Part shown: positions 11,800 to 64,000 of the stretch, piece by piece
Layout: each line of letters opens with the position of its first letter
How positions within the stretch are numbered: position 1 is the first letter of the stretch
DNA from: Pseudomonas phage sp. 30-2
Length of the DNA: 64,000 nucleotides
Reading direction: 5' to 3' (one strand)
Sequence record: LC727697.1
Notes under the pieces: model-generated
What the model saw: only the letters and a program-made list of their open reading frames with translations
Database searches by the model: none
What the model was told of the DNA's origin: nothing
Translations under genes and position numbers: made by a program

Positions 11800-11889
11800 T
11801 GGCAGATACTGTAGGATTCGAACCTACGGAGCTTTTTCAAACTCACTTCCTTAGCAGGGAAGCACCTTAAGCCACTCGGTCAAGTATCT
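11800..11889 (-). tRNA. tRNA-Ser (anticodon GCU), CCA encoded
   Basis: Cloverleaf read by hand: acceptor AGATACT/AGTATCT, anticodon loop CTGCTAA, long variable arm, T-loop GTAGG-TTCGAAT-CCTAC. Confidence 0.85.
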
Positions 11890-11894
11890 ATATT

Positions 11895-11984
11895 TGGCGG
11901 AGAGGGTGGGATTCGAACCCACGGGACCTTTCGATCCGCTAGTTTTCAAGACTAGTATAATAAACCAGACTCTATCACCTCTCC
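11895..11984 (-). tRNA. tRNA-Ser (anticodon UGA), CCA encoded
   Basis: acceptor GGAGAGG/CCTCTCC, anticodon loop CTTGAAA, long variable arm, T-loop TTCGAAT. Confidence 0.85.
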
Positions 11985-11998
11985 AAAACTAGTTAATT

Positions 11999-12358
11999 CT
12001 ATTCGTAAATTATTCTACAATGTTGTTTTCCTGCAACTCTATCTAAATAACCAAGTCTAGCTAAAATAGCTGGAGCTACATTATTATATTCATCTATAAA
12101 AGATTTAGGAACATTATATAAGTATGCACTTTGGTCATTATCGAATTCTTTACAAAAGATACCATAAAAGTGCGGAACATAGGGATTATCTTCGAATTCC
12201 TTATTTTCTAAAATCTTATCTTCTAAATACGCATCATTTGCAAATAATCTAATATTTTTATTTATTTTATTAGATTCGTATTCCGAGTCTTCGTATATAA
12301 TTTTTGCATCGGCAGTAGGAAGATATATTCCGTATACAATTTGAATTTTGGAAATCAT
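11999..12358 (-). CDS. hypothetical protein within tRNA region
   Basis: 119-aa ORF. Confidence 0.45.
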   Translation of the reverse strand: MISKIQIVYGIYLPTADAKIIYEDSEYESNKINKNIRLFANDAYLEDKILENKEFEDNPYVPHFYGIFCKEFDNDQSAYLYNVPKSFIDEYNNVAPAILARLGYLDRVAGKQHCRIIYE

Positions 12359-13170
12359 TTAAAATTCTCTTTTGTTATTTTATGCACTTATTATACGAAA
12401 TAATTATACTTTTGTCAAATGTTATTTTGTATATTTAAAAGAAATCATCATAAGAATGTACTACAAGTATATATTTTTCTTATTAAATATCCGTCGGGAT
12501 CTATTATAAAAATATTCAAATGCTTTGAATAAAAAACACCATTAAAAAAGTAAGTAGGGGATATTCGTATAATACCTTCGTTAGCATTAATAGATATCCT
12601 AAATATGTTTTCCATAAATCCACACCGTTATTATGTGTATTTATGGTTTTATTTCTATTTAGAATAGTTATTATAATAGATATATAATGGTTATTTAAAG
12701 GTAAGTCAATTTATAAAATAATAGATAAGCTAAAAATATTTGCATGCAATTAAAAAATCAGTTGTTTTATCTACAACATATATTTCTAATTGTTTTCTAT
12801 TGCTTGTCGGTTTAGTTTTTATCGAAACACATATAGATTTTGTATAAGACAACCTAGAAATGCTATATACATTTTCACGAAAAATAGACAAATCGAGTCT
12901 AAATATGCAACCTGCCATTTAATGTTGGTTCCTTAAACAGAACAATATCAATTTATATTTTTATTCTATCTGTCTAAAAACCATAAAGCATAATTTCCTA
13001 TATTAGGAAGGTATAAACATAAACAATGAGATTTTCTTACATACAATAACTCTGTTGTGTATGCCTGTATTTCCAGCACCGTTATATTAGATGGTATAAC
13101 TAATACTTCCATATTTATCCACTACACGAATCATCGAATAGATATACCAATCAATTATATTAGAATATTG

Positions 13171-13243
13171 AGCAGCCCACGGGACTCGAACCCGTAACAT
13201 CTGACTTGGAAGGACAGTGCTCTACCAATTGAGCTAGGACTGC
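13171..13243 (-). tRNA. tRNA-Gly (anticodon UCC, probable), no encoded CCA
   Basis: acceptor GCAGTCC/GGGCTGC (one GU), D-arm GCTC-AATTGGTA-GAGC, anticodon loop CTTCCAA, T-loop TTCGAGT. Confidence 0.7.
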
Positions 13244-13252
13244 ATAGTAAAT

Positions 13253-13329
13253 TGGTCTAGGCAGGAGACCTCGAATCCCCAACCTCTTGCTCCCAAAGCA
13301 AGTGCTCTACCTACTTGAGCTATGCCTAG
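13253..13329 (-). tRNA. tRNA-Pro (anticodon UGG), CCA encoded
   Basis: acceptor CTAGGCA/TGCCTAG, anticodon stem CTTGC/GCAAG, loop TTTGGGA, T-loop TTCGAGG. Confidence 0.85.
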
Positions 13330-13338
13330 ATATAAAAC

Positions 13339-13415
13339 TGGTTGCAGGGGTGGGATTCGAACCCACGATAAAAAGGTTATGAGCCTTTCTGCTTAGACCT
13401 CTTGCATACCCTGCG
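13339..13415 (-). tRNA. tRNA-Met, initiator-like (anticodon CAU, C1-A72 mismatch, A73)
   Basis: 5' CGCAGGG vs 3' CCCTGCA leaves C1:A72 unpaired as in bacterial tRNA-fMet; anticodon loop CTCATAA; 3' end ...CCCTGCAACCA resembles E. coli tRNA-fMet. Confidence 0.7.
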
Positions 13416-13438
13416 ATAAAACTATATTGTTATATTAT

Positions 13439-13771
13439 TTACCATTTTAAATTTTTAATCTGAGAAAAATCAAATTCCGGAAGTATGCATTTATCGTCTA
13501 GATAATCTTGCATAATCTTTACATCATCAGGCGAACACGAACCTGTACTAGATTGCCACAGGCTCATTATATCTTTCGAATACATAGATCCACGACTATG
13601 TATTCCGTATCTACAGTGCATATTGTCTTTTACTATGCCAACTCTTGCTTTTCCGGCATCGAAATAAACAATATTATATATTCCGTCTATATATGAAATT
13701 AGACGTGCATTTTTTCTATTGTTACGCTTTATCCATTTTAGAACATCTGTATCATTAGAATAATTATTCAT
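13439..13771 (-). CDS. hypothetical protein
   Basis: ORF between tRNAs. Confidence 0.45.
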   Translation of the reverse strand: MNNYSNDTDVLKWIKRNNRKNARLISYIDGIYNIVYFDAGKARVGIVKDNMHCRYGIHSRGSMYSKDIMSLWQSSTGSCSPDDVKIMQDYLDDKCILPEFDFSQIKNLKW

Positions 13772-13799
13772 TATTTGAGGTACTCTTATATATACATGT

Positions 13800-14042
13800 T
13801 TATTCTAAAATTATTTTCCCTTTACCGTATAATTCTGTATTATACCAAGCTACAGAGTATAAGTAAATAGAATTATATTTAATATCGAATATGTATATTC
13901 CGCTAGTATCAGTTCTAATACTGAATGCTTGTTGTTGAAGCCAAAATAATTTTATTTGTAACGATAACTCTTTGCATTTCCTACAAGTCGATGTATGCTT
14001 TTTGATTGTTCTGTATTGTAGATGTTCTTTGCATCTATTCAT
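13800..14042 (-). CDS. hypothetical small protein
   Basis: ORF. Confidence 0.35.
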   Translation of the reverse strand: MNRCKEHLQYRTIKKHTSTCRKCKELSLQIKLFWLQQQAFSIRTDTSGIYIFDIKYNSIYLYSVAWYNTELYGKGKIILE

Positions 14043-14310
14043 ATTATTAATATAAATTTTTATACTATAATATTTTTATAGCGAGTCCAGCCTACTAAAC
14101 AGGTATTGTGCAGATTGTAGTTCGAATCAATTCCGATTAATACTCGTCCTATATAATTTTTTCGTAAGTTTAGCTGACCTGGACTGATCCGAGTTTTTCT
14201 GCACACTTCAAATATATCTTTACCTATACAACAGAAACCTTGTTTCATACTATAACGAAGAAGTCTTATGTCAAATCTTATTGTTTGCATAACACAACAC
14301 TCTTTAAAAT

Positions 14311-14387
14311 TGGCGCGCCCGGAGGGATTCGAACCCCCGACCATCCGCTTAGAAGGCGGATGCTCTATCCAGCTGAGCTACGAGCGC
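14311..14387 (-). tRNA. tRNA-Arg (anticodon UCU), CCA encoded
   Basis: acceptor GCGCTCG/CGGGCGC, anticodon stem TCCGC/GCGGA, loop CTTCTAA, T-loop TTCGAAT. Confidence 0.9.
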
Positions 14388-15293
14388 ATATCTTGTGCAA
14401 CTAATGATAGCTTTGTAATAATGCTTTGTATGCGTAACATTATATACTGTTTTGTTTGTTCGGTCAACTATTTTTATTAAAATATATATCTATACAATTA
14501 AGTAATGATCGACGTAACATTTATGAAAATAACTACCACTATTTATTAAGTATAAAGCTATTACGGATTTCTCACAAAAAGTATTTTTACTGACTACAAA
14601 CCCTTTGTAGATTTTTGCATGACATACGATGCGTTCTAAATAGTACGAATAGGAAAAAATACAGTTCATTATCATCATCTTAGCCGTACAATATAACAAT
14701 TCTTATCTAGCCGAACATACCATACTATTTCGCCAGAATAAACACAAACTATGGATTCCGACCATTTTAATAACGACAATTTACATATCAATGTTTTATG
14801 CGAAATAGTTAAAATTTTTTCCATTCTTTATTCTATGTAATAAAGTTAATAAGAAATACTAAGTATACCGCAATATCGATAATAAACAGAATTGCTATAT
14901 ATTATCTAAGCACTTCCGGTATTTGTTACAATAAAAATATTATGTATTATAGAATATAACGGAACATCGGATGCAAATAGTATCTTATCTTAAATATCAT
15001 AGTAATAGAAAGGATAGTAACAGATCTATTATCGCATAACGATATTATGTTGAAACAAGGCATGTATATTACTTCTGTTGAGTATTGTAAATTAATAATG
15101 TATTTCATTTTTTAATTCTATATTGCATTGTATTTCCATGCCATAGAAAATGTACCGATATCAAAATGTACCCATAATGTAAAAGATCTATTATTTTTTA
15201 TAGTGACTACTAACTTGTTTAATACGCGATATTCTATTACGTATGTGTTGGCAGATATATGCATTATTTCATTCATAATAAAAATATCATAAT

Positions 15294-15326
15294 AAAAAAG
15301 GAACATACCATAATATGTTCCTTTTG
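15294..15326 (-). terminator. rho-independent terminator inside tRNA cluster
   Basis: aaaaaaggaacataccataatatgttccttttg hairpin flanked by A/T runs. Confidence 0.6.
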
Positions 15327-15334
15327 TAGGAGTT

Positions 15335-15419
15335 TGGTGCCCGGTGCCAGACTCGAACTGGCACGACTTTCGTCGGGAGATTTTAAGTCTCCTGTGTCTA
15401 CCGATTTCACCAACCGGGC
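15335..15419 (-). tRNA. tRNA-Leu (anticodon UAA), CCA encoded
   Basis: acceptor GCCCGGT/ACCGGGC, anticodon stem GGAGA/TCTCC, loop CTTAAAA, long variable arm. Confidence 0.85.
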
Positions 15420-15469
15420 ATATTCATTCATTATATAGTTTAAGTATAGTTTGATTTGTATATAAAAAT

Positions 15470-15546
15470 TGGTGGGACTTACTGGATTCGAACCAGTGAC
15501 CTAGCGATTATGAGTCGCGCGCTCTAACCAACTGAGCTAAAGTCCC
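15470..15546 (-). tRNA. tRNA with CAU anticodon: elongator Met or Ile2 (lysidine) candidate
   Basis: acceptor GGGACTT/AAGTCCC; body GCTCAGTTGGTTAGAGC-GCGCGA-CTCATAA-TCGCT closely resembles E. coli tRNA-Ile2. Confidence 0.8.
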
Positions 15547-15615
15547 GTTTGAAACATTATATGAATATTTTATTTAGACTATTGTATCTCTTTAGATACA
15601 AATGTTATTTAAAAT

Positions 15616-15691
<76 letters not shown>

Positions 15692-15717
15692 ATATTGAAT
15701 ATACAACAAAGTGTAAT

Positions 15718-15793
15718 TGGCTGGCTAGGTAGGACTCGAACCTACGACCCAATGATTAACAGTCATTTGCTCTACCGACTGAGCTACTAGCCA
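15718..15793 (-). tRNA. tRNA-Asn (anticodon GUU), CCA encoded
   Basis: acceptor TGGCTAG/CTAGCCA, anticodon stem AATGA/TCATT, loop CTGTTAA, T-loop GTAGG-TTCGAGT-CCTAC. Confidence 0.85.
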
Positions 15794-15843
15794 TTTAATT
15801 TTAGAATAGTTTCCTATCTTGTTAAGTATTTATATCTTTTGTT

Positions 15844-15928
15844 TGGTACCCGAGACCGGACTCGAACCGGTACGCTGCGAAGCGGGAGATTTTAAGTCTC
15901 CTGTGTCTACCAATTTCACCACTCGGGC
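15844..15928 (-). tRNA. tRNA-Leu (anticodon UAA), second diverged copy
   Basis: same D-arm and anticodon arm as 15335..15419 but different acceptor stem (GCCCGAG) and variable arm. Confidence 0.85.
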
Positions 15929-15950
15929 TAAAAGCACAACATCTTAAAAT

Positions 15951-16027
15951 TGGTCCCTCGAACTGGATTCGAACCAGTGACCTAGCGATTATGAGTCGCG
16001 CGCTCTAACCAACTGAGCTACCGAGGG
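15951..16027 (-). tRNA. tRNA with CAU anticodon: Ile2 (lysidine) or elongator Met candidate
   Basis: body identical to 15470..15546 between positions 8 and 65; acceptor stem CCCTCGG/TCGAGGG differs. Confidence 0.8.
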
Positions 16028-16064
16028 GTTTTTTAACTTGTTAAATAAGCTGCATTATACGCTT

Positions 16065-16093
16065 ATTATACTAAAACTTTTAAGCTATTGCAA
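16065..16093 (-). promoter_or_regulatory. sigma70-type promoter P1 for tRNA operon (-35 TTGCAA, 17-bp spacer, -10 TATAAT)
   Basis: minus strand reads TTGCAA-tagcttaaaagttttag-TATAAT; lies about 35 nt upstream of the 5' end of the first tRNA. Confidence 0.65.
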
Positions 16094-16143
16094 CATTTTT
16101 TATTACGTTTTGTTTGTAAACTGTATTGCGTTGTTATGTGCTT

Positions 16144-16172
16144 ATTATACTAAAACTTTTAAGCTATTGCAA
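16144..16172 (-). promoter_or_regulatory. sigma70-type promoter P2, exact duplicate of P1
   Basis: second copy of the same -35/-10 pair within an about 79-bp tandem duplication. Confidence 0.6.
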
Positions 16173-16530
16173 CATTTTTTATTACGTTTTGTTTGTTGCT
16201 GTGTTATTGCGTTATATGTGCAAATTATACGCATACTTTTATATGAAAACTATACTATATTTACAATATTTTTGGAATGTACTTTTATATAAGTAGTGAA
16301 CAGAAAGTTATATAATATACACGAAATATATTTCATACACTTCGGTAATAAAAGTATTTAATTACCAGGTTCCCACGTTTATCTGGTAGAATTAGAGACA
16401 TTCGTTGTAAAATATAACTAAAATTGTAATGCAGTCTTACAACTCTACTTCTGCTGCTTATATGTAATATAGTTTCAAATGTAACTATTTTGTCGTTATT
16501 CTGTCTTATATAATCATAAGTGTTCATATA

Positions 16531-24973: not shown

Positions 24974-25600
24974 CTATATAAAAGTTATGTTATGTTCTTG
25001 TGCGTAACTAATTAAAGATTTAAGTTTCTTATCGGATTTTCTTATTCTGTTTCTTGCTTCGTGTTGTAAGTGTTCTGGTAATTGACGTATATAGGTATTA
25101 ATTATTTCTTCTAATTGTTTATATTGCATTCCTTTGTTTGTATGACAATTTTCTTTTATTAAACTTTGCGATAACGCATATTCTTCCCTGCCTTTAGCAA
25201 CAATTATATTTTGTTCTTCTATAGATTTAAATAGTTTGTTTGCAAGCTTAGACGAATTAATTGCAGTTAGTGCATCACCTACATTATGCATATATTTGTC
25301 GAATCCCTTCATTTTAGATAAAGGGTTATTTTTTAATGCGCCGGAAGTATATGCAGATACAGTAATGTTTGATATTTCTATAAATGCAGGCGAAAGAGAA
25401 ACTAATTCTTTTGCAGAAGAAGAAATTATATAATAGTTTTTAGAAAACCAAGTTCCTTTCCTGCAAACTACTTGTCTATCTAATATGTCGCCGTGTCCAT
25501 CGTCTATCATTTTTTCTAAAGAGATGTTTATTTTATAAATTTCTAAAATAAGAGAATTTGCAACAGACCTAAATATGTTTGCATGCGAACTGTATATCAT
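24974..25600 (-). CDS. hypothetical protein
   Basis: ORF in operon with AAA ATPase. Confidence 0.5.
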   Translation of the reverse strand: MIYSSHANIFRSVANSLILEIYKINISLEKMIDDGHGDILDRQVVCRKGTWFSKNYYIISSSAKELVSLSPAFIEISNITVSAYTSGALKNNPLSKMKGFDKYMHNVGDALTAINSSKLANKLFKSIEEQNIIVAKGREEYALSQSLIKENCHTNKGMQYKQLEEIINTYIRQLPEHLQHEARNRIRKSDKKLKSLISYAQEHNITFI

Positions 25601-25986
25601 ACAATATATTCCACTTCGCCTAAATCTACGTATACAGACAAATTATTACCTATAATTCCTATTTTTGTTTCAAACAAAAATAAATTATCCACATTAGTAA
25701 TAGTGTCTAACTTTTCTTTTGTTTTAGAGTGATATTTTGCTGCAAGTTTAATGGAATGGTATATGTTATCTTTCGATTTAACAGAAAATTCTATTATTAA
25801 TTTCTTTTTACATTTGTATGATATAAAAGAATTAGAAATAAATTCGTAGTGCTCAGCTGAACATCCGGAAATACACTTTAAAATAATAGAATTATATATA
25901 GAGAAATACCCGTAATGCTCTGTCTCTTTTTTATTATACAGATACTCGGTTATAAACTTTTCGAAATTATACATTGGTAATCTCAA
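25597..25986 (-). CDS. hypothetical protein
   Basis: ORF, 4-nt overlap with downstream gene. Confidence 0.45.
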   Translation of the reverse strand: MRLPMYNFEKFITEYLYNKKETEHYGYFSIYNSIILKCISGCSAEHYEFISNSFISYKCKKKLIIEFSVKSKDNIYHSIKLAAKYHSKTKEKLDTITNVDNLFLFETKIGIIGNNLSVYVDLGEVEYIV

Positions 25987-33706: not shown

Positions 33707-34861
33707 TTAAATATCACTGTACTTTTCGTTATACAGCCGCCGGAATTTTGCATTCCGTTTCAGTACAGTTGTCTCTGCATATTCTCGCCAACCATCTTTT
33801 TTGAATTTAATCAGATCGGCAATTTTAATTACCATACGCAAGCTAAGTTCTCGCAGATCATTCTGGTTATCGATAATATATTCTAGGATTTCTTCATCTT
33901 CTCCGTTATTAAATTCATATTTACTAAGCATCCCGTCGCGCACAACTTGTTTAATGCGAAGGATCTGGTCTCTCGTACTACTAATTTCCATGTCTAAATA
34001 ATGACACCGGGACATAATTGCTTCTAGGTGCCTTCCAATTCGGGACTTTGTATCCTCGAAGTTAAGGTTAGTAAGGAAAATTACACTACCTTCGAAATCG
34101 AATTTAGGTGGAATATCATTTTCTTTTAAAACGCGGGACTCACTAAGCCAGTAAATAGTTCTACGCTTAGTAGTATCTAATGCACCTTTAAGGAGATTTA
34201 GACTATCTTCGTCAAATAGTACGCGGTCGCAATCATCGAAAATAAGGATTTTACCTTTATCTTTAAATTCGTAAAGCTTTTGGTAAACACCAATTGCACT
34301 TGCAGCGCCCTTTACGATCTCAAACGGTTCTTTATTATCTTTAATTTTATCCAACAAGAAACACCTGTTTAGTGTTTCTTCTACGCCGAAGCTTTTTCCG
34401 ATTCCGGGAGGACCGGAGATGATCATAGAACGGATTTCGCCTGCCGCAGCAGCCTCTGTTAGTTCATTTACAATCTCAAAAGTCCGTTTGATACGATTCA
34501 TTGCATCGTTTTCGGATTCTAGTTGCTGGTATTGCTTTTCGTAGTCAATTTCTACTGCGGTGCCTTCATACACTGTACCGCGACTAGATGCAGGAACATT
34601 ATTATTATTTTCGCCCACAAAAGGACGTATAACATTAGGCAAATCTAAAACCTCTCCTTGTTCGTTCGAATACTGTACTGTTGCGTCATTACCGAGTGTA
34701 ACTCTACATTTATGTTGAGACCATTCCGGCAATGCACCTAATACGTTAATAACTCGTTTTCCCGACCCAGTAACTTTCACATCTTCGAGTAAAAGGAATG
34801 TGCCGTTTACTTGCTGGTTACGGTACATTCCGTTAGTGATAGTTACGTACATCTGACTCAT
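33707..34861 (-). CDS. AAA+ ATPase with clamp-loader (RFC/gp44)-like motifs and about 140-aa N-terminal extension
   Basis: Walker A GPPGIGKS, Walker B ILIFDDCD, sensor-1 VIFLTN, SRC motif IMSRCHYL. Confidence 0.6.
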   Translation of the reverse strand: MSQMYVTITNGMYRNQQVNGTFLLLEDVKVTGSGKRVINVLGALPEWSQHKCRVTLGNDATVQYSNEQGEVLDLPNVIRPFVGENNNNVPASSRGTVYEGTAVEIDYEKQYQQLESENDAMNRIKRTFEIVNELTEAAAAGEIRSMIISGPPGIGKSFGVEETLNRCFLLDKIKDNKEPFEIVKGAASAIGVYQKLYEFKDKGKILIFDDCDRVLFDEDSLNLLKGALDTTKRRTIYWLSESRVLKENDIPPKFDFEGSVIFLTNLNFEDTKSRIGRHLEAIMSRCHYLDMEISSTRDQILRIKQVVRDGMLSKYEFNNGEDEEILEYIIDNQNDLRELSLRMVIKIADLIKFKKDGWREYAETTVLKRNAKFRRLYNEKYSDI

Positions 34862-35373: not shown

Positions 35374-35588
35374 AAAAAGTTTTCCGGTACTAAATGTATT
35401 TCCATTACCCTTACATTACTATCGCCAAACTTTTTCTTACAAGATTCTAATATAGATGATATTTTAGAAATATCATATTCTACAACCGGAGAATCCTGAT
35501 AATTTATCCATGTGCATGATTTCCAATTATTATCTGTAACTACGACAATATAACATTTAGACGGAGATATTTTAGATATAGCATTCAT
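35370..35588 (-). CDS. small protein, tandem paralog 1
   Basis: similar to 35585..35806 (C-termini EIHLVPENFL / EVYIVPEKVL). Confidence 0.45.
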   Translation of the reverse strand: MNAISKISPSKCYIVVVTDNNWKSCTWINYQDSPVVEYDISKISSILESCKKKFGDSNVRVMEIHLVPENFL

Positions 35589-35806
35589 AACACCTTCTCC
35601 GGGACAATATATACTTCTGCTATTTTTATTTCAGCATCCGGCCATTCGTTTTTACAATTGTCAAATTCATCATTTAAAACTACCGGATTGTCTACCAACA
35701 TATATTGATCGTCTAGCGATACCCAGCTAAATCTAGTATCGCCTGGATGACGCACAACTATGCAATATCCTTTAATGGGCGGAAGTTCTTTAATTACGTT
35801 TACCAT
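35585..35806 (-). CDS. small protein, tandem paralog 2
   Basis: paralog of 35370..35588. Confidence 0.45.
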   Translation of the reverse strand: MVNVIKELPPIKGYCIVVRHPGDTRFSWVSLDDQYMLVDNPVVLNDEFDNCKNEWPDAEIKIAEVYIVPEKVL

Positions 35807-36483
35807 AAATTACGTGCATGATTAATGATGTTTTTATTACTATACACTATTTTTAATAAAATACTATTTTGTTTCATACAGGAAACAGGTGTGCTTTTTA
35901 TATATATGCCTATTTTTGTCGTTTTATACATAAAATAAGTCAAAATTTTGAATAGTATAATTCTATTAAAATAGCTTGTGTCATAAATTGCAAACATTAT
36001 AAAATTATATTATAAATCTTGAATAACATATAATAAAACAGATGAAAGAATTATATTCTTTCATCATTTGAGTATGACACAGAAAACTAATTATAATGGA
36101 ATTCTTCTAAAGCACATAATAACTAATTAGTTTTATATACGGCAAGTATCAATGCATAATAATATAGGTAGTGTCGATTCAATACAAAACATAGTTTGAT
36201 GTATATTCTCTATATAATTTGGTTTGTTATTACACTATAGCGTATATAACTGTATACATTAATAATCGATTATGCAGATTAATGAAACTAAAAAATATAG
36301 ACACAAATATTATGTGTCTCAATTTATCATATTTGCTATATCCCGAGACGTATTAAATATAAAGAAAAATAACCATTTATTGACAAATGTAATTAGTAAA
36401 TGTATTTCTATAAAATATAGTTATCGTACAGATATTATTAATTATAATCTGAATATCTAAAACCGAATACCATATAATCAAAT

Positions 36484-36510
36484 AAAAACCCTACATTTGT
36501 AGGGTTTTTA
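36484..36510. terminator. bidirectional hairpin terminator
   Basis: aaaaaccctacatttgtagggttttta. Confidence 0.6.
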
Positions 36511-36552
36511 ATGACTTTAAGATTATAAAAGAAATAGACAAAATAGTTTTAT

Positions 36553-36653
36553 ATGAAATTGTTTAAATTAAAATTACAAAATGATATTGTTTAATATATT
36601 TCCATTTTAAATCACGAAATAGTATTTTAAATTAAAATCACAAAATGACATTT
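36553..36653. repeat. iteron-like direct repeats (TTAAATTAAAAT(T/C)ACAAAATGA)
   Basis: two about 29-bp copies at 36553 and 36624, plus a partial copy. Confidence 0.6.
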
Positions 36654-36766
36654 AAAAATAATATTTAAAATTATATTTTATAGATTGATTTTCAAAAACA
36701 CATTTCAAAATATAAAATTGAAAATACAAATTGCAATTTTAAACAGCGAAGCAAGCTTCACTGGTA

Positions 36767-36816
36767 GTTATTAAGTATATTCGTTTTCGTAAACTACAAC
36801 TCATATACTTAATAAC
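36767..36816. repeat. 14-bp-stem inverted repeat (gttattaagtatat / atatacttaataac) with 22-nt loop
   Basis: perfect 14-bp arms. Confidence 0.7.
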
Positions 36817-36850
36817 TAATTAAACGAATTTTATATATTAATTATTAATG

Positions 36851-37613
36851 CTTTTGATCTTATGATATTCGGGCGGAGAAGATTTCCTCCCCGTTTGGGA
36901 AGGAAATCGTAATAACAGAAACGTATGTTTCGGTATGGTACGAAGTTTAGTGTACGTTGGGAAGTGCAATCCCTGAGGCGGGCACCGATAGGTAATTCCT
37001 CATTGTAAACGCATCCTCTTACTCATATATACAGTTGCTACTAATGCTTACTGTCTCGCATCACTGCATATACTTTCAATGCCGGAATAAACTATAGCCA
37101 CACTAACAAAAACTATAGTCTATTGATGTTGGTGTTTCAACTTTCAGCCATACGGAATCTATACTGAAAGATTTATAGAAACTCTGTTTCAACCAGAGCA
37201 TCATCCTTTCCGTGTAGTAGTTGAGGCATATATTCTATGCCGTGGTTAGACCAACATCCTACACAAGTTTCGAGATTATATGCGGTTCTTACTAAGTCCT
37301 TTTAGTAAGTACAATCTCTGTGGCACCCAAAATCATAATTTAAATAACTGTTAAAACGTTAACCCGACACTATCGGAACTACAATAACAGCACGATGGGG
37401 ATAGTTTCTACTATCAATATCCAATAACGGAACAGAGCCACTTGTCTGTATATACATATAGCACTATCGTATATACATTTCTTACGCAAGCGCACAGTTT
37501 ACTAAAAGACAATACCAATGTCAAGTGCCTAATTACCACATTTTGTTACCAAACACAGTTGACTATTGAATATACATATTTTATAGTATGGTAAAAATTT
37601 TTACGGTATACGT
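36851..37613. other. about 760-bp ORF-free, GC-elevated region with multiple hairpins: candidate structured ncRNA or intron/origin remnant
   Basis: no ORF of 60 aa or more on either strand; 10-bp stem hairpin at 36881..36908; composition departs from flanks. Confidence 0.35.
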
Positions 37614-38507
37614 ATGGATATTAGCTATATTAAAGCTTTAGGCGAATTAGAATATTTTATTAAATTTAGAAAAAATAAAGAAATAACAATTGCTAATAAT
37701 TCAGCTAAAGATGCACTAATTGCAGTCTGTAATTCTATTGACGTTGAATATATACCGTTCAATGCTACTGTATTGAATGTTCTTATGGAAATTAAAAGTC
37801 CAAAATTAATAAACTTTATATCAAGTAATTATTCATCTTCTATTAGTGAATATAACAGATCTATAAGTAAAGAAGATTTATATCTTGTCAGGCAATGTAT
37901 TGGAAAATTTTCAAATTCAATGTTTCCTATGAAAGTTCCTATAACATGTCATAAATTATTTTATGTTGTTTTAAAGAATTTAAAACCGAGAAAAGCATTA
38001 TCTAAAGATATAATAACGCAATTGTGTACCATACAATCTTTACCTGATTTAAACATAGTAAGACTTATTTTAAAAGAATTAAAACGACATAACGTTTTGT
38101 TGAATAAAAGAGTATTTAATTTTTTTTGTAGTAAAAGATATTCTGTTTTTGAAGAATATGTAAAATTTGTAGGGTTTGATACTATTTCTAAAAATAAACA
38201 ATATCACTGGTTTCTTTTTGAAAGGATGTCTTCGCTATTCTATATGCATAAAGCAAATGGTCAGACAATGTCTACTGATAGTTGTATTAAATTTCTTAAA
38301 AATATAGATTGGTCTTATATAGCAGGACGACATATATTGACTATATTTTCGAGGAATGTGTTGCATAGTAATTCTATAAAATATTTAGATCATATAAATC
38401 TCGATTTTTTGCCGTATTCGTACTGGAACAAACTTATAAAGATCTTCCCTCATTTGGCTGGGTCAGAACAACATGTACTAGCAAAACTTAAAGGTCCCCG
38501 AAACTAA
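37614..38507 (+). CDS. hypothetical protein
   Basis: first gene of plus-strand module. Confidence 0.5.
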   Translation: MDISYIKALGELEYFIKFRKNKEITIANNSAKDALIAVCNSIDVEYIPFNATVLNVLMEIKSPKLINFISSNYSSSISEYNRSISKEDLYLVRQCIGKFSNSMFPMKVPITCHKLFYVVLKNLKPRKALSKDIITQLCTIQSLPDLNIVRLILKELKRHNVLLNKRVFNFFCSKRYSVFEEYVKFVGFDTISKNKQYHWFLFERMSSLFYMHKANGQTMSTDSCIKFLKNIDWSYIAGRHILTIFSRNVLHSNSIKYLDHINLDFLPYSYWNKLIKIFPHLAGSEQHVLAKLKGPRN

Positions 38508-41327: not shown

Positions 41328-41930
41328 ATGGATACTTTGATACTTAACAAAGACGGTAATCCGTTATGCATGTTACCATTATCTGTTGTAGACTGGCAAA
41401 CTAGTATTAAATTAGTATCGCTTGGCAAGGTCGAAATTTTAAAAAATTACGACAATTGGGAAGTTAATTCTCCCAGTATTACTATGAAGGTTCCGTCTAT
41501 TGTAATGTCAACTGAATACATTAAATGGAATCATAAAACAAAGTTTTCCAGAAACAACGTATATTTAAGGGATAACTATCAGTGTCAGTTTTGTTTTAGA
41601 ACGTTTCCTGTTAAACAGCTAACACTAGATCATGTTTTACCTAAGAGATACGGTGGTAAGACAAATTGGACTAATATATGTACTGCATGCAAAGTTTGCA
41701 ATAACAAAAAAGGCGATAACAAGAATATTATTCCCATTAAAATGCCACATAGACCTACTTATTATGAACTTGTTTCTCGTAGGCAACAATTACCTATTTT
41801 AATAAGAGATAGTGATTGGAAATTTTATTTGCCGTGGGATTCAAACTTAATAATTATTACTGATAAAAAATGTATATCAGAAATTGAATCGAGCCCGACA
41901 CACAATTACGGAGAAATGTTAAATGGCTAA
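41328..41930 (+). CDS. HNH endonuclease
   Basis: LDHVLPKRYGGKTNWTNICTACKVCNNKKG: HNH core with flanking Cys pairs. Confidence 0.75.
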   Translation: MDTLILNKDGNPLCMLPLSVVDWQTSIKLVSLGKVEILKNYDNWEVNSPSITMKVPSIVMSTEYIKWNHKTKFSRNNVYLRDNYQCQFCFRTFPVKQLTLDHVLPKRYGGKTNWTNICTACKVCNNKKGDNKNIIPIKMPHRPTYYELVSRRQQLPILIRDSDWKFYLPWDSNLIIITDKKCISEIESSPTHNYGEMLNG

Positions 41931-42195
41931 GAAAGCTAAAGCTGTAGAAAAAGAAGTTGTAGAAAAAGAAGTTGTAGATCAAGAGAATATGACTGAACAA
42001 GCAAGCGAAGAACCTCGTCTAGGTGTACAAGACATTAAAGATTTACTAACCATAGTTGATGTTGCATGCCAACGCGGAGCATTCCGCGCAGAAGAAATGG
42101 CTAGCGTCGGTGGAGTGTTTAGTAAAGTTAAATCTTTTGTATCAGCAATTGAACCTAAACAAGAAGAGCAAGAAGCTGAAACTGAAGCCAAATAA
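41923..42195 (+). CDS. hypothetical acidic protein
   Basis: ORF, GC-richer than flanks. Confidence 0.5.
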   Translation: MAKKAKAVEKEVVEKEVVDQENMTEQASEEPRLGVQDIKDLLTIVDVACQRGAFRAEEMASVGGVFSKVKSFVSAIEPKQEEQEAETEAK

Positions 42196-45537: not shown

Positions 45538-47046
45538 CTAGCGTACCTGCAATGTATATTTGTAATTGCCGCAATCGTAATATTTTAAATAACCTAAACT
45601 ATCCATTATTTCTGATTCGCTTAGATGTAAATTATTTTTATTAGAAATCTTAGATTTTATGAAATTAGATCTATGATATTTTATGTTGTCTTTTATATAC
45701 CAATAACCTGTATTTCTGTCATTCTTGGTTACATTTGTAAACCCGAGCTGTTTATATAAATTTCCATCTGACCAACACCTGTCTGCATATGTAATAATAG
45801 ATTTAGGGGAATATGTTTTTATGAAATATTTAAGAAGTTTGCTGGCTCCTCCTACAACAGTATTTTTGCTAGCATATCTAAGTAATTCATATTCCTCTTT
45901 TGTATATCTAGATTTCCCAAATGTCATTACGGCTACTAACAAATTCTCATTGTCGTATAGACCTAGTCTTACAGATGATTGACAAGAACCTTGGATGTGA
46001 GTTTCTTCTAAAAAAGTTAAAGATTCGTTAAATGTTATTTCTTTTATGGTTGTATTCCTTGCATATATTCTATCACTACAACCTAAAATAGATTTTAACC
46101 TTGATTTTATTATGTCTTGTTTTGATATCCAATCTACATCTAAAATTTGTATTAACTTTATTCCTTTATCTCTGCATTCTATAAATTTATCTACATGATA
46201 TGATTTTTTTCTGTGTTTTGTAGAATGCCAATAACAACCATTATATTCTATTGCTATGTTTGTACCTTTAATTACTATATCTAATTCTTTGTTAGATAAT
46301 ATAGATCGGTCATTGTTAATCACATCAAAACCTAGCGATACTATATAGTTAGATATTTCATTTTCGCCGGCAGACTTTGTTAAAGGATTACAAACATTGC
46401 ACCTCGGAGTAGACCCATAATCTACGTGTCCGATTACTATATTTCCGCATGCATTGCATACCCAGTCATACACATTTTTTCTAAAGCACCCTTCGTACTC
46501 GTCTATACTAAACGTAGGGGTGAGTATGTTAGAAAGTCGTTCTACTACTTTTTTATATCCCAATTCCTTTATAGTTCTATGATCTGGCTTTATATGTTTT
46601 TTACTTAATTGCTGTTTTGCAATAATATCTTTTGACTTAGATGGATTATCGACACCGTATTTTTCTATCCAAGTTTTTATCCTTTTTGTTTTCATACTTT
46701 CTTTTCCGGATTGTGTCATGCCTGGATGATTTTTTAAAGACCATTCCATATGGCATTTACATTTACTTTTATTTCCGCAAAATCCGTATTGGGTTTGTTT
46801 TGTATCTTTATTTCGCTTTAGTGTCCGTTTGTTATCATACTTACAGTAAACATTATCAGCCGGATTTAAGTATATATGAATCCTTTCTGTCACAGAAACG
46901 TCGTCACGAAGAAAGGAATTAGTTCGACGAACTAATTCCTCATATATTTCTTTTTTACTTTTTACTACATTTCCTAATGCGTTAGGATTTGTATTTTTTA
47001 TGAGTTCTTTTAATTCTATATCAAAGTTATCCATTATTCGTGCCAA
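45538..47046 (-). CDS. homing-endonuclease-like protein: Zn-finger pairs + Vsr/DUF559-like PD-(D/E)xK nuclease core + C-terminal domain
   Basis: CNACGN..CNVCN; ELDIVI..IAIEYNGCYWHS; paralog of the ORF at 62881..>64000 (IYAR..I.E..F...H.QG, ADRCWSDGNLY blocks). Confidence 0.7.
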   Translation of the reverse strand: MARIMDNFDIELKELIKNTNPNALGNVVKSKKEIYEELVRRTNSFLRDDVSVTERIHIYLNPADNVYCKYDNKRTLKRNKDTKQTQYGFCGNKSKCKCHMEWSLKNHPGMTQSGKESMKTKRIKTWIEKYGVDNPSKSKDIIAKQQLSKKHIKPDHRTIKELGYKKVVERLSNILTPTFSIDEYEGCFRKNVYDWVCNACGNIVIGHVDYGSTPRCNVCNPLTKSAGENEISNYIVSLGFDVINNDRSILSNKELDIVIKGTNIAIEYNGCYWHSTKHRKKSYHVDKFIECRDKGIKLIQILDVDWISKQDIIKSRLKSILGCSDRIYARNTTIKEITFNESLTFLEETHIQGSCQSSVRLGLYDNENLLVAVMTFGKSRYTKEEYELLRYASKNTVVGGASKLLKYFIKTYSPKSIITYADRCWSDGNLYKQLGFTNVTKNDRNTGYWYIKDNIKYHRSNFIKSKISNKNNLHLSESEIMDSLGYLKYYDCGNYKYTLQVR

Positions 47047-62880: not shown

Positions 62881-64000
62881 TTATAAATCCTTTGTATAAA
62901 CAATATTTCCCGAATCCCAAATCCTGCCATATCCGTTTGCGTAAATATTTTCTACTACGCTAACCGAATTATTATAATTTTTTAATTTAACTTTTGCCTT
63001 GTCTTTAGAGAAAGATAATCTATTATATGTATCTTTGAAGTCAGTATAATAAAATCCAGGAGCTATTATTGAAGTTTTAGCAAATCCGTTTTTTTCATAA
63101 ACGTTTCCTACGGACCAGCGCCTATTTGCATATGATACTATCTTGCCTGTAAAATTACAAGAAACTACCTTTAATAATTTAGAAAACCCACCTATTACAC
63201 TTGTGTTATTTAGGTTACAAAATCTTACTATTTCCCAGTTTGCATTTTTATTAAACCTGGGCTTTGCAATTGTTAATAAAGAAACTAATTGATCCGAATA
63301 ATACAATCCGTATGCATGCCGAAATTGTGCATGACCTTGCAAATGATTCGTTTCGGCGAATTGCTTTGCATCATCGAACTTAACTTCTTTAATTTCTGTT
63401 TTTCTTGCATATATTTTATTAGATAAACCTAGTTTATTTTTTATTACTGAGATCCATATATCTTTTTTAGTATGCCATTCGTTGTCGAAAATGTGTAATA
63501 ATTGGATATTATTTTGTTCACATGTAGTGGTTTTATCAAGGTGGTATGTTTTATATTTTTGATCAGTTTCTATATGTTTAGAAGAATGCCAATAAAGTCC
63601 ATTATATTCTATTGCAAGATTTTTACTAGGAACATATATGTCTAATTCGAACCCGAATCTATTGTATGAATGAATTGTATCTGAGCAATAAGATTTAACT
63701 AAATCGAATATTTCTATTTCTGCCTTAGACCTGTATGTAGTTTCTGCTACTTTATCTAAACCGCATTTCTGACAACCGTGTCCGGCAGTATGATAGTATG
63801 ATATAAGGTTAAAGTCGCCGTGTACCGGGCATGTTATAATAACTTTATCTCTAATGTTAGTGTATATAGTTTTAGTATAGTCATAAAAATTATTATGAAC
63901 GTTATTACTTCTTTCTATGAAAGAATCTGTGTCATATGATAATCTATGACCGATGGCTTCGAACGAGCATTTTTTACAACCGTGACCTGATTGATGGACG
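62881..64000 (-). CDS. homing-endonuclease-like ORF (partial; continues beyond window) in frame with the polymerase segment and separated from it by a single TAA
   Basis: Hand translation gives HGCKKC/HGCQKC Zn fingers, LAIEYNGLYWHSSKH Vsr-like core and a C-terminal domain paralogous to 45538..47046; stop 62881..62883 abuts ATG 62878..62880. Confidence 0.65.
   Translation of the reverse strand, partial: VHQSGHGCKKCSFEAIGHRLSYDTDSFIERSNNVHNNFYDYTKTIYTNIRDKVIITCPVHGDFNLISYYHTAGHGCQKCGLDKVAETTYRSKAEIEIFDLVKSYCSDTIHSYNRFGFELDIYVPSKNLAIEYNGLYWHSSKHIETDQKYKTYHLDKTTTCEQNNIQLLHIFDNEWHTKKDIWISVIKNKLGLSNKIYARKTEIKEVKFDDAKQFAETNHLQGHAQFRHAYGLYYSDQLVSLLTIAKPRFNKNANWEIVRFCNLNNTSVIGGFSKLLKVVSCNFTGKIVSYANRRWSVGNVYEKNGFAKTSIIAPGFYYTDFKDTYNRLSFSKDKAKVKLKNYNNSVSVVENIYANGYGRIWDSGNIVYTKDL

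Follow-up and report, generated by a model that had tools for sequence, protein, structure and literature searches.

To our knowledge, only about a dozen classes of RNA that exceed 400 nt and adopt a conserved complex fold have been recognised in bacteria and phages. The large structured RNAs solved so far are ribozymes, protein-RNA machines or self-assembling cages. RNA-primed replication origins, such as those associated with ColE1 RNA II and T4 oriF-oriG, employ a transcript of several hundred nucleotides that runs from a host-polymerase promoter toward a hairpin-bearing, AT-rich tract that unwinds easily. The long phage RNAs GOLLD and ROOL and the lncRNAs of phage K are abundant, as reported (PMC9241854) and as is generally known.

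The DNA considered here, a window of 64,000 nt (LC727697.1), is part of the genome of a PA5oct-group jumbo phage (Wroclawvirus) of Pseudomonas aeruginosa and is 96-98% identical to ten published genomes. It is fairly likely that the GC-richer part of one 1.8-kb intergenic region of this window (35807-37613) is the gene for a folded non-coding RNA of about 0.6 kb, encoded on the minus strand. In PA5oct, the orthologous ncRNA004 (EST35_0353) was found by directional RNA-seq and listed as a "putative lncRNA" (Lood et al. 2020, PMC7318152, Table 1). That paper and the genome record go no further than noting a transcript that lacks an ORF and a known promoter; its promoter, fold and paralogues are unreported in both, and the family of three diverged RNA copies presented below has not been described before. 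In published records, the paralogues are either unannotated or overlaid by small hypothetical CDSs.

Layout of the intergenic region

The initial annotation treated the 1.8 kb as a single unit. Its features are instead distinct elements, namely a spacer, a terminator, an AT tract, an inverted repeat and an RNA gene, and the region divides into a conserved 1-kb transcription unit and an adjoining hypervariable 0.7-kb spacer (Table 1). The spacer carries 15-23 variable sites per 100 nt (7 genomes) versus 0-5 in the RNA unit, i.e., copy A of the RNA and its tail; judging from this divergence, the left 0.7 kb is an unconstrained, fast-evolving spacer. The elevated GC content noted initially is evident, with values of 0.36-0.42 over about 36800-37500 against 0.15-0.24 in 35800-36800 and about 0.24-0.27 in the right-hand gene. 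The statement that no ORF of at least 60 aa is present is literally wrong, as the ORF list contains one of 65 aa at 35800-35997 (minus strand) and one of 62 aa at 36272-36460 (plus strand). Both are interrupted by stops or frameshifts in other Wroclawvirus genomes, and the region is therefore non-coding in the biological sense. The suggested divergent promoter region is likewise recovered, in the form of two predicted back-to-back promoters.

Table 1. Coordinates of the features in and around the RNA gene (window positions unless stated otherwise).
Feature	Position	Strand	Description or basis
Hypervariable AT-rich spacer	35807-36482		Promoter-like and terminator-like sites, decaying small ORFs, no conserved ORFs
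Bidirectional intrinsic terminator (predicted)	36483-36510		13-bp stem, U-tracts on both sides
Extremely AT-rich tract with two 27-nt direct repeats	~36543-36742		GC 13.5%
Second short hairpin, CAGUGAAGC UU GCUUCGCUG	36744-36763	-	Read from the sequence
Inverted repeat	36765-36818		Perfect 14-nt arms, 22-nt loop
Structured non-coding RNA body	~36859-37489	-	Orthologue of PA5oct ncRNA004 (246116-246734 of MK797984)
GC-rich 12-bp hairpin, 3′ end of stable RNA	36881-36908	-	Annotated 3′ end 22 nt downstream
Block 3 UUCCGGCA (37080-37087) pairing with block 4 UGCCCGCCUC (~36975-36986)	36975-37087	-	Encloses variable domain
ACCAAC, 5-nt linker and hairpin H9	37088-37134	-	Conserved ACCAAC; per-copy folding
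Conserved block 2, GAAAGGAUGAUGCUCUGGUUGAAACAGAGU	37181-37210	-	BLAST and k-mer matches between paralogues
Hairpin H7 (branched)	37211-37265	-	Preceded by conserved single-stranded GAAAC (37269-37273)
Helix P5 around hairpin H6, AAGGA in H6 loop	37274-37318	-	Per-copy folding
Conserved 5′ domain	37316-37444	-	Closing helix P1, two small hairpins, nested three-helix arm, invariant internal loops including UAUUUAAAUU
Sigma-70-like promoter of RNA gene	37496-37524	-	TTGACA (37524-37519), 17-nt spacer, TAAACT (37501-37496)
Divergent promoter-like site TTGACT-17-TATAGT	37559-37587	+	Prediction; would serve rightward gene starting at 37614
Predicted starts of copies B and C	PA5oct ~75833 (B), ~12866 (C)		Predicted promoters

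Promoter and transcript of copy A

The promoter of copy A matches the consensus at 10 of 12 positions, and its hexamers are invariant among genomes. Transcription is predicted to start at about 37489, which is 12 nt upstream of the annotated 5′ end of PA5oct ncRNA004 (mapped to ~37477). Copy A is orthologous to ncRNA004, with 99.2% identity over 784 nt, the same strand and the same flanking genes, and its RNA is 99% identical among genomes. The initial annotation had envisaged a large structured ncRNA, to be checked by looking for a discrete transcript, and had left the strand unspecified. The RNA-seq-based ncRNA004 that the PA5oct record annotates at the copy A locus is such a transcript, and the GC-elevated segment is indeed transcribed, conserved and structured, on the minus strand. 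Folding of 36851-37490 yields -184.7 kcal/mol for the minus strand (z = -3.8) versus -160.5 kcal/mol for the plus strand (z = -2.7).

In PA5oct, ncRNA004 accounts for 0.08, 0.03 and 0.02% of total phage reads in early, middle and late infection, respectively (PMC7318152). It is odd that the RNA is so weak, below the genome average, and this counts against a structural RNA acting in trans.

Three paralogues per genome

Besides copy A, each genome contains copy B (PA5oct 75.9-76.9 kb) and copy C (PA5oct 12.9-13.5 kb). BLAST locates three places per genome in all ten Wroclawvirus records, at positions that are the same throughout, and a search of the 287-kb PA5oct genome with the covariance model R1 returns exactly three matches of 136-159 bits (135.5 bits for the 5′ domain at copy A), the next best scoring 13.7 bits. 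B and C have perfect TTGACA-17-TATAAT promoters (12/12 consensus matches) at the place equivalent to that of the A promoter, which suggests that they are transcribed as well.

Similarity between A, B and C is confined to colinear conserved blocks, between which hairpins with unrelated stem sequences occur at the same positions. Each member possesses the single-stranded blocks GAAAC, AAAGGAUGA-GCUCUGG, ACCAAC, UUCCGG and CCCGCCUC, together with an almost invariant multi-helix 5′ core of 130 nt, variable peripheral hairpins and a 3′ GC hairpin, and the conserved architecture continues for 400-700 nt past the 5′ domain. The flanking genes of the three copies are mutually unrelated, and duplication of a gene cassette was accordingly rejected. 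A protein-coding gene was also considered and rejected: the only ORF start common to the copies opens a frame of 14 aa in A, 50 aa in B and 7 aa in C, and the small ORFs predicted automatically within the elements include none common to the copies.

From genome to genome, all three copies vary less than the DNA next to them, and they are under purifying selection. Copy C has 0-5 variable sites per 100 nt versus up to 12-23 in the flanking genes and DNA, and copy B has 15 variable sites in 1.5 kb. These observations bear on the view, raised in part in the initial annotation (for a mobile element or a group I intron), that the segment is what is left of a decayed mobile element, intron or gene and is devoid of present function. 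Such a remnant would be ORF-free, with a GC content unlike its surroundings and several copies, as found here, and the phage carries many homing endonuclease genes. Against this, the elements surpass their flanking genes in conservation, exhibit compensatory changes and conserved promoters, and sit at three unchanging positions in each of the ten published genomes, with no terminal repeats at the borders of homology and no intron or transposon-RNA match. Already disfavoured, a remnant is thus highly improbable.

Searches for known families and homologues

At the gathering threshold, Rfam 15 finds only 12 tRNAs in the window; they form a cluster at 11.8-16.0 kb, 20 kb from the copy A RNA. When the threshold is relaxed to E<=10, the GC-elevated segment (36850-37495) gives no match of any kind, including to the degenerate group I intron that had been proposed, while hits elsewhere in A, B and C are noise or terminator-like, those in the region falling mostly at the terminator and the inverted repeat. 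Group II introns, tmRNA, 6S, RNase P, GOLLD, ROOL, HEARO, OLE, raiA, riboswitches and Rsm/Csr RNAs were likewise discarded, none of them giving an Rfam signal.

Sequence searches lead to the same genus. When A, B and the 5′ domain are compared by BLAST with 50,697 phage records, only the ten Wroclawvirus records are recovered, the weak matches at E=5 being chance stretches of 19-29 nt. Exact and gapped pattern scans of IMG/VR were empty or gave chance matches; a metagenome scan produced one chance match within an AraC-like gene, a bacterial genome scan six, and none of these chance loci scores with R1. The neighbouring proteins of copy A have no Pfam match, and one of the neighbours, gp352, has no relatives outside the genus, so that synteny is unusable for finding homologues. 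As no homologue was found outside one phage genus, the support for the structure presented below comes from within this genus.

Secondary structure of the RNA

The best-defined part of the fold is the 5′ domain. Across the three independent lineages formed by A, B and C (orthologues are ~99% identical), and in an alignment fitted to a model from the same sequences, 96.9% of the pair positions of this 130-nt domain are paired versus 35-49% in controls with slid 3′ partners, both sides have changed in 11 of the 41 pairs, and the covariation score reaches 0.288 versus at most 0.078 in the slid controls. On the antisense strand, pairing falls to 82.7%, and the 86 G-U pair positions make the pairing of the domain strand-specific. 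Consistently, the variants between orthologues that lie within helices (37428, 37414) are G-U to A-U switches on the minus strand. Covariation analysis, suggested at the outset for related phages, has here yielded compensatory, strand-specific base pairs, as expected of a conserved structured RNA, over three lineages.

Downstream of this domain, the stems of the variable hairpins cannot be aligned by sequence, and each copy was folded separately between anchors. Counted from P1, P5 and H6 begin at identical distances in A, B and C, on stems of unrelated sequence; the z-score of the P5/H6 segment is -5.0 for A and -4.1 for C. In every copy H7 runs right up to block 2, and its stem is formed by UGUGUAG/CUACACG in A, GUUUACAC/GUGUAAAC in B and UAUUAUAUAUCU/AGAUAUGUAAUA in C. 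H9 extends in all three copies from linker position 6 to the last base before block 3, again on unrelated stems (12, 6+5 and 9 bp; z = -3.1, -2.4 and -2.25). The z-scores of these downstream segments range from -2.3 to -5.0. The helix between blocks 3 and 4 shows one compensatory change, GGCA/UGCC in A versus GGGA(G)/(C)UCCC in B and C, and encloses a domain of 98 (A), 196 (B) or 47 nt (C). A long-range pairing between CAGAG in block 2 and CUCUG in the 5′ domain is possible, the two sides having co-changed in B (CUUUG / AAAAG) in what amounts to a single event. The 3′ half of the RNA is only loosely modelled, with local z values of -0.9 to -2.4.

The conserved blocks also invite the view that the RNA acts as an RsmA/CsrA-type sponge, which would titrate the host translational regulator RsmA through GGA motifs in hairpin loops. 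AAGGA is present in the conserved H6 loop of all three copies, block 2 reads AAAGGAUGA, close to the high-affinity CsrA site, and AGGAU, summed over the sense strands of the three copies, is found 7 times, versus an expectation of about 2.2 and a single antisense occurrence. However, GGA shows no overall enrichment: counts of 10, 12 and 10 (A, B and C) compare with 7.7, 10.1 and 7.9 in dinucleotide shuffles, and antisense counts are similar. GGA density in RsmY, RsmZ and CsrB is about 5-fold higher than in A, B and C. Only two GGA sites are conserved, the most conserved parts of the RNA contain no GGA loops, and Rfam gives no Rsm/Csr family match. We give a sponge very little credence.

3′ hairpin and downstream elements

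The hairpin at 36881-36908, described initially with a 10-bp stem, has 12 uninterrupted pairs, one of them U-G, when read on the minus strand, while the plus strand has a C-A mismatch. Its sole variant among genomes is in the loop (36896), and B and C have equivalent GC hairpins, of which that of C scores as terminator-like. The 14-nt arms of the inverted repeat, 36767-36780 and 36803-36816, are perfect as first reported and can be extended to 26-nt arms with 85% complementarity. The repeat is invariant in 7 genomes; in B, an identical 32-nt centre is flanked by different but again perfectly complementary arms, and in C, 16-bp arms enclose a different loop. In B and C, as in A, a hairpin follows the long inverted repeat.

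Further along, the AT tract is the lowest-GC 200-nt window of the entire 287-kb PA5oct genome; it starts some 120 nt beyond the annotated 3′ end of the RNA and is conserved among genomes (0-5 variable sites per 100 nt). The direct repeats noted initially within it are real, if slightly shifted from the positions first given: each spans 27 nt, at 36562-36588 and 36626-36652, and the two are identical at 25 of 27 positions here and at 26 of 27 in PA5oct, a match obtained in 0 of 100 shuffles. No further copy was found in the window or in the PA5oct genome even with 5 mismatches allowed, and two copies 64 nt apart are few for iterons, which would be arrayed as 3-4 or more direct repeats. Copy A alone has the extreme AT tract and this pair of repeats, with no counterpart in B and C. 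Beyond them, the terminator gives weak terminator-type Rfam alignments and varies among genomes only in its loop and top pair; it probably ends the primary minus-strand transcript.

This terminator is also relevant to the proposal of a cis-regulatory leader or insulator, in which the RNA would be a long 5′ leader of the riboswitch or attenuator kind, or a transcriptional buffer, for co-oriented downstream genes. The next downstream gene is co-oriented with the RNA at all three loci, and the invariant multi-helix 5′ domain has an aptamer-like layout. Yet at A the terminator and 0.5 kb of hypervariable spacer with promoter-like sites precede the next gene, the genes that follow the three copies are mutually unrelated, no riboswitch family matches, and a leader leaves aside the 400-700 nt of conserved architecture past the 5′ domain. 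A role of this kind seems quite improbable.

The main rival to a folded, stand-alone RNA is an RNA-primed replication origin, in line with the origin suggested in the initial annotation. According to this model, the structured RNA would be a pre-primer and the three paralogues three origins: a host-polymerase transcript would run toward an unwinding element made of the inverted repeat and the AT tract, form a persistent hybrid, be processed and prime the leading strand. The position and composition of the AT tract are those of an AT-rich unwinding element, the inverted repeat and the 27-nt direct repeats are conserved between the RNA and the terminator, and downstream of each paralogue come a long AT-rich inverted repeat and a further hairpin. 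A and B are located where transcription direction diverges, low abundance and an early promoter suit a cis-acting primer, and the phage encodes an RNase H. T4-type phages have several origins, which also speaks for this model. On the other hand, the confinement of the AT tract and direct repeats to copy A and the paucity of the repeats weigh against it, as do the absence of DnaA boxes in 35807-37613 and of a recognisable initiator gene nearby, and a GC skew that tracks gene orientation only. It is the 5′ core, well away from the presumed origin, that is conserved most strongly, and T4 R-loop primers need no elaborate conserved fold. An origin is thus unlikely, though it would be more than a marginal prospect. 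If true, the three loci would be the first origins to be mapped in this phage family.

Proposed role of the RNA

Computation and published RNA-seq establish the transcript at A and its strand, the paralogy, the conserved secondary structure and purifying selection; from these we infer that the RNA works as a folded molecule, rather than as a DNA site or an mRNA. In the proposed sequence of events, host RNA polymerase would start at about 37489 from the sigma-70-type early promoter TTGACA-17-TAAACT. The stable product would be the GC-elevated body of about 620 nt that ends at the GC hairpin 36881-36908, corresponding to PA5oct ncRNA004, and read-through would end at the terminator 36483-36510. 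The whole transcription unit, at about 36483-37524 on the minus strand, would then be stand-alone.

It is plausible, with chances not far short of even, that the invariant core is specifically recognised early in infection by a protein, a ligand or another copy of the RNA, and acts in trans. More tentatively, the family may constitute a novel class of large RNA with a complex fold, similar in size and architecture to GOLLD, ROOL and OLE, whose 130-nt core binds a partner, catalyses a reaction or assembles with its paralogues, and which is put to early use by a non-nucleus-forming jumbo phage. The invariant internal loop UAUUUAAAUU includes the self-complementary AUUUAAAU, which would offer one route for assembly among paralogues.

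Cultivable, therapy-relevant Pseudomonas phages (PA5oct, Paride) and public RNA-seq make this a tractable case, in which the three diverged copies amount to a natural mutagenesis experiment. Annotation also needs correcting, as several deposited genomes place strings of 30-50-aa "hypothetical proteins" inside all three elements.

Comparison with known systems

Compared with the origin transcripts, the RNA resembles ColE1 RNA II and T4 oriF-oriG in its length of several hundred nucleotides, its host-polymerase promoter and its course toward an AT-rich, easily unwound tract with hairpins, a likeness known here as geometry only. It differs from them in that the AT tract is found at one of three copies, that there is no antisense regulator, and that conservation resides in the 5′ core and not at the 3′ end. 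As an unusually long, GC-rich intergenic region in an AT-rich genome, the locus is akin to the ncRNAs discovered through GC-rich long intergenic regions (PMC8632094); motifs of that type are mostly bacterial and have many representatives, whereas the family described here has three independent members in one phage genus. With respect to GOLLD and ROOL, A, B and C show no Rfam sequence or structure match at E<=10, copy A is low in abundance and does not lie next to tRNA genes, and three paralogues are present per genome. Like GOLLD and ROOL, the RNA exceeds 500 nt, is phage-borne, ORF-free and GC-elevated relative to its surroundings, and combines a conserved core with variable peripheral hairpins.

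Three copies of an RNA element

The minus-strand locus, called copy A here, carries in the PA5oct GenBank record (to which the window runs in reverse complement) a "putative lncRNA, ncRNA004, based on RNA-Seq data". This is one of four transcribed regions "lacking putative ORFs or known promoters", and its share of the phage reads is 0.08% early in infection, 0.03% in the middle phase and 0.02% late (Lood et al. 2020, PMC7318152). Beyond this, nothing on it was found in the paper or its preprint, in the MIJ3 paper or in a 2026 jumbo-phage review. By megablast, window 35500-38500 matches ten records over its full length at 96-98% identity, all from Pseudomonas aeruginosa jumbo phages of the genus Wroclawvirus (among them PA5oct, MIJ3, Paride, Cassandra, Deifobo, Ettore, Callisto, PAC2 and 30-3).

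Because BLAST returned matches at several places per record, the PA5oct genome was assembled and the other places were located, giving copies B and C. The three share a block of ~125 nt (~80% identity, invariant runs of ~30 and 27 nt) and a second block of 28 nt, and A and B also have in common an identical 32 nt within the inverted repeat, the remaining sequence being unalignable; in B and C the 5′ domain runs on into an ORF-free element of 0.5-0.85 kb. R1, a covariance model built on the 5′ block, recognizes exactly three copies in PA5oct (287 kb) at 136-159 bits, the next best match scoring 13.7 bits; in the window it recognizes a single copy. By BLAST, three such places occur in each of the ten published genomes. 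The genes beside A, B and C are mutually unrelated, which indicates that the duplicated units are the RNA elements themselves. A perfect predicted TTGACA-17-TATAAT promoter precedes B, and likewise C, and the promoter hexamers of all three copies are invariant among genomes. Outside Wroclawvirus, no homologue was found in phage records, IMG/VR, metagenome contigs or bacterial genomes, and every pattern match there proved to be chance; the neighbouring protein, too, lacks relatives beyond the genus. A genus-specific family of structured RNAs with three paralogues very probably exists.

In several records, elements B and C are unannotated or overlaid by 30-50 aa 'hypothetical protein' CDSs (EST35_0142-0145 in PA5oct; likewise in the Paride, Cassandra and Ettore annotations), which are probably spurious. 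Beside element B, and divergently transcribed, PA5oct gp141 (25169-25663, minus strand, of L004, a piece of MK797984) matches the phage endonuclease family PDDEXK_15 (E = 2e-28).

Features of the region and of the RNA copies (window coordinates unless stated)
Feature	Position	Strand	Remark
ORF, 65 aa	35800-35997	-	interrupted in other genomes
ORF, 62 aa	36272-36460	+	interrupted in other genomes
Bidirectional terminator	36483-36510		conserved
Direct repeats, 27 nt	36562-36588; 36626-36652		
Inverted repeat	36767-36780/36803-36816		14-nt arms, perfect
Hairpin	36881-36908	-	12 contiguous pairs, this strand only
ncRNA004 (copy A)	~36859-37477	-	PA5oct 246116-246734
R1 match	37316-37444	-	
Predicted promoter TTGACA-17-TAAACT	37524-37496	-	12 nt upstream of annotated 5′ end of ncRNA004
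Predicted promoter TTGACT-17-TATAGT	37559-37587	+	faces gene at 37614
Copy B	PA5oct ~75.9-76.9 kb	as ncRNA004	ORF-free, GC-elevated
5′ domain of B	MK797984 75986-76119 (L004 25986-26119)		
Copy C	PA5oct ~12.9-13.5 kb	as ncRNA004	ORF-free, GC-elevated; within long terminal repeat
5′ domain of C	MK797984 12898-13031 (L003 12898-13031)		
P5	begins 1-2 nt past P1		A, B, C
H6, AAGGA loop	begins at position 11 of post-P1 segment		A, B, C
H7	ends immediately 5′ of block 2		A, B, C
H9	begins 6 nt past ACCAAC, ends at block 3		A, B, C

Structure of the RNA

The large structured ncRNA that the initial annotation had considered possible is supported by folding and by base-pair covariation between the copies. 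The minus strand of 36851-37490 folds at -184.7 kcal/mol (z = -3.8), the plus strand at -160.5 kcal/mol (z = -2.7). An Rfam scan and comparative covariation had been proposed as checks: the scan gave no match at the A, B or C loci even at E<=10, and covariation was found in the 5′ domain. The RNA thus belongs to no known Rfam family. Nor does it code for protein: the sole start codon common to A, B and C opens peptides of 14, 50 and 7 aa.

The 5′-domain alignment comprised 19 sequences (15 distinct), with six or seven genomes contributing to the three loci. In the consensus fold, 96.9% of pair positions are paired, versus 35-49% after sliding the 3′ partners by 1-3 columns, and in 11 of the 41 pairs both partners are altered. 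The covariation score is 0.288 (slid controls, at most 0.078), obtained from just three independent lineages and an alignment fitted to a model made from them. P1, which closes the domain, is GUGGC/GCCAC in copy A and GCAGC/GCUGC in both other copies. Since G-U occurs at 86 pair positions, these helices reach only 82.7% pairing on the opposite strand. Both orthologue variants within helices (37428 and 37414) are G-U/A-U switches. In an internal loop (37339-37348, minus strand), the 10-nt invariant unpaired UAUUUAAAUU includes the 8-nt self-complementary AUUUAAAU, which could let RNA copies pair with one another by a kissing interaction or dimerization.

Downstream, in all three copies, the short colinear conserved blocks GAAAC, AAAGGAUGA-GCUCUGG, ACCAAC, UUCCGG and CCCGCCUC are followed by a GC-rich hairpin. 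When each copy is folded separately, the inter-block hairpins lie at equal offsets in A, B and C with unrelated stem sequences, and the segments fold more stably than shuffles (z -2.3 to -5.0). Blocks 3 and 4 pair through GGCA/UGCC in copy A and through GGGA/UCCC in the other two, a compensatory change; the 3′ half of the RNA is structurally less well defined. Element B also contains a perfect long-range complement of 13 nt (GUGUAAACGAAAG/CUUUCGUUUACAC, PA5oct 76326-76338 and 76803-76815), which joins the H7 3′ strand and block 2 to the tail past the GC hairpin; as a competitor of the local hairpin H7, it makes alternative folds possible.

Conservation of the region and the origin question

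Comparison of the window with PA5oct and an alignment of seven genomes divide the 1.8 kb (35807-37613), previously taken as one unit, into hypervariable and conserved parts. Across the seven genomes, 35400-36500 has indels and 15-23 variable sites per 100 nt, and 36514-37613 has 0-5, a conservation at least that of the coding DNA on its right. The border is the terminator, whose variation is confined to the loop and top pair. No other stretch of the 11 kb compared varies as much as this hypervariable part (spacer and last small leftward genes), whose ORFs are intact or broken depending on the genome. The absence of ORFs of at least 60 aa, claimed initially, is literally wrong by two ORFs; since other genomes carry interrupted versions of both, the region is biologically non-coding. 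The GC-elevated segment was recovered (0.36-0.42 across about 36800-37500; flanks 0.15-0.24 over 35800-36800 on the left and ~0.24-0.27 in the gene on the right), as were the inverted repeat and the hairpin. The direct repeats, described as about 29 bp, are present at two sites with corrected length and coordinates, and no shuffle produced them.

Past the RNA body, all three copies have a long AT-rich inverted repeat, then a second hairpin. The repeat centre is an identical 32 nt in A and B, with arms that differ yet are perfectly complementary in each; the loop of C differs from both. At A only, an extreme AT tract comes next (13.5% GC, the lowest 200 nt of the whole genome), within which both 27-nt repeats sit. 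GC skew tracks gene orientation only, and the region has no DnaA boxes. This layout keeps alive, for copy A, the earlier idea of a replication origin but does not establish it; an RNA-primed origin, the main rival reading, is rather unlikely.

Other features of the window

The 384-aa protein at 33707-34861 (minus strand), 'thioredoxin' in PA5oct (EST35_0359), has only weak AAA_16 and STAND-NTPase matches in Pfam and no thioredoxin signal. Twelve tRNA genes cluster at 11800-16027 (minus strand), as published for PA5oct, adjoined by a 63-nt direct repeat (16055-16196; 97% identical, 79 nt apart). Another direct repeat (82 nt, 74% identity) occurs 17 kb apart at 46206-46287 and 63567-63648, its first copy within a 502-aa ORF (45538-47046) whose PA5oct counterpart is annotated as a putative homing endonuclease. 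Finally, 41801-42000 differs from PA5oct at 30 positions per 200 nt, versus 0-6 in adjacent bins; this patch, beside an HNH endonuclease gene (41328-41930), resembles a local replacement or recombination tract.

Interpretation

In the favoured reading, copy A is a stand-alone gene for a large structured RNA of this three-paralogue family, driven by an early promoter, and its product probably acts as a folded molecule via the nearly invariant core. That it works in trans, the core being specifically recognized, is a tentative proposal with slightly less than even chances. A cis leader or insulator and a decayed remnant are minor alternatives, as is an RsmA sponge, GGA showing no enrichment in the RNA. 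Regarding what is already known, the transcript at the copy A locus was annotated before; the three-paralogue family is not previously described, and its paralogy, promoters, conserved architecture and strand-specific covariation are new within the literature searched.
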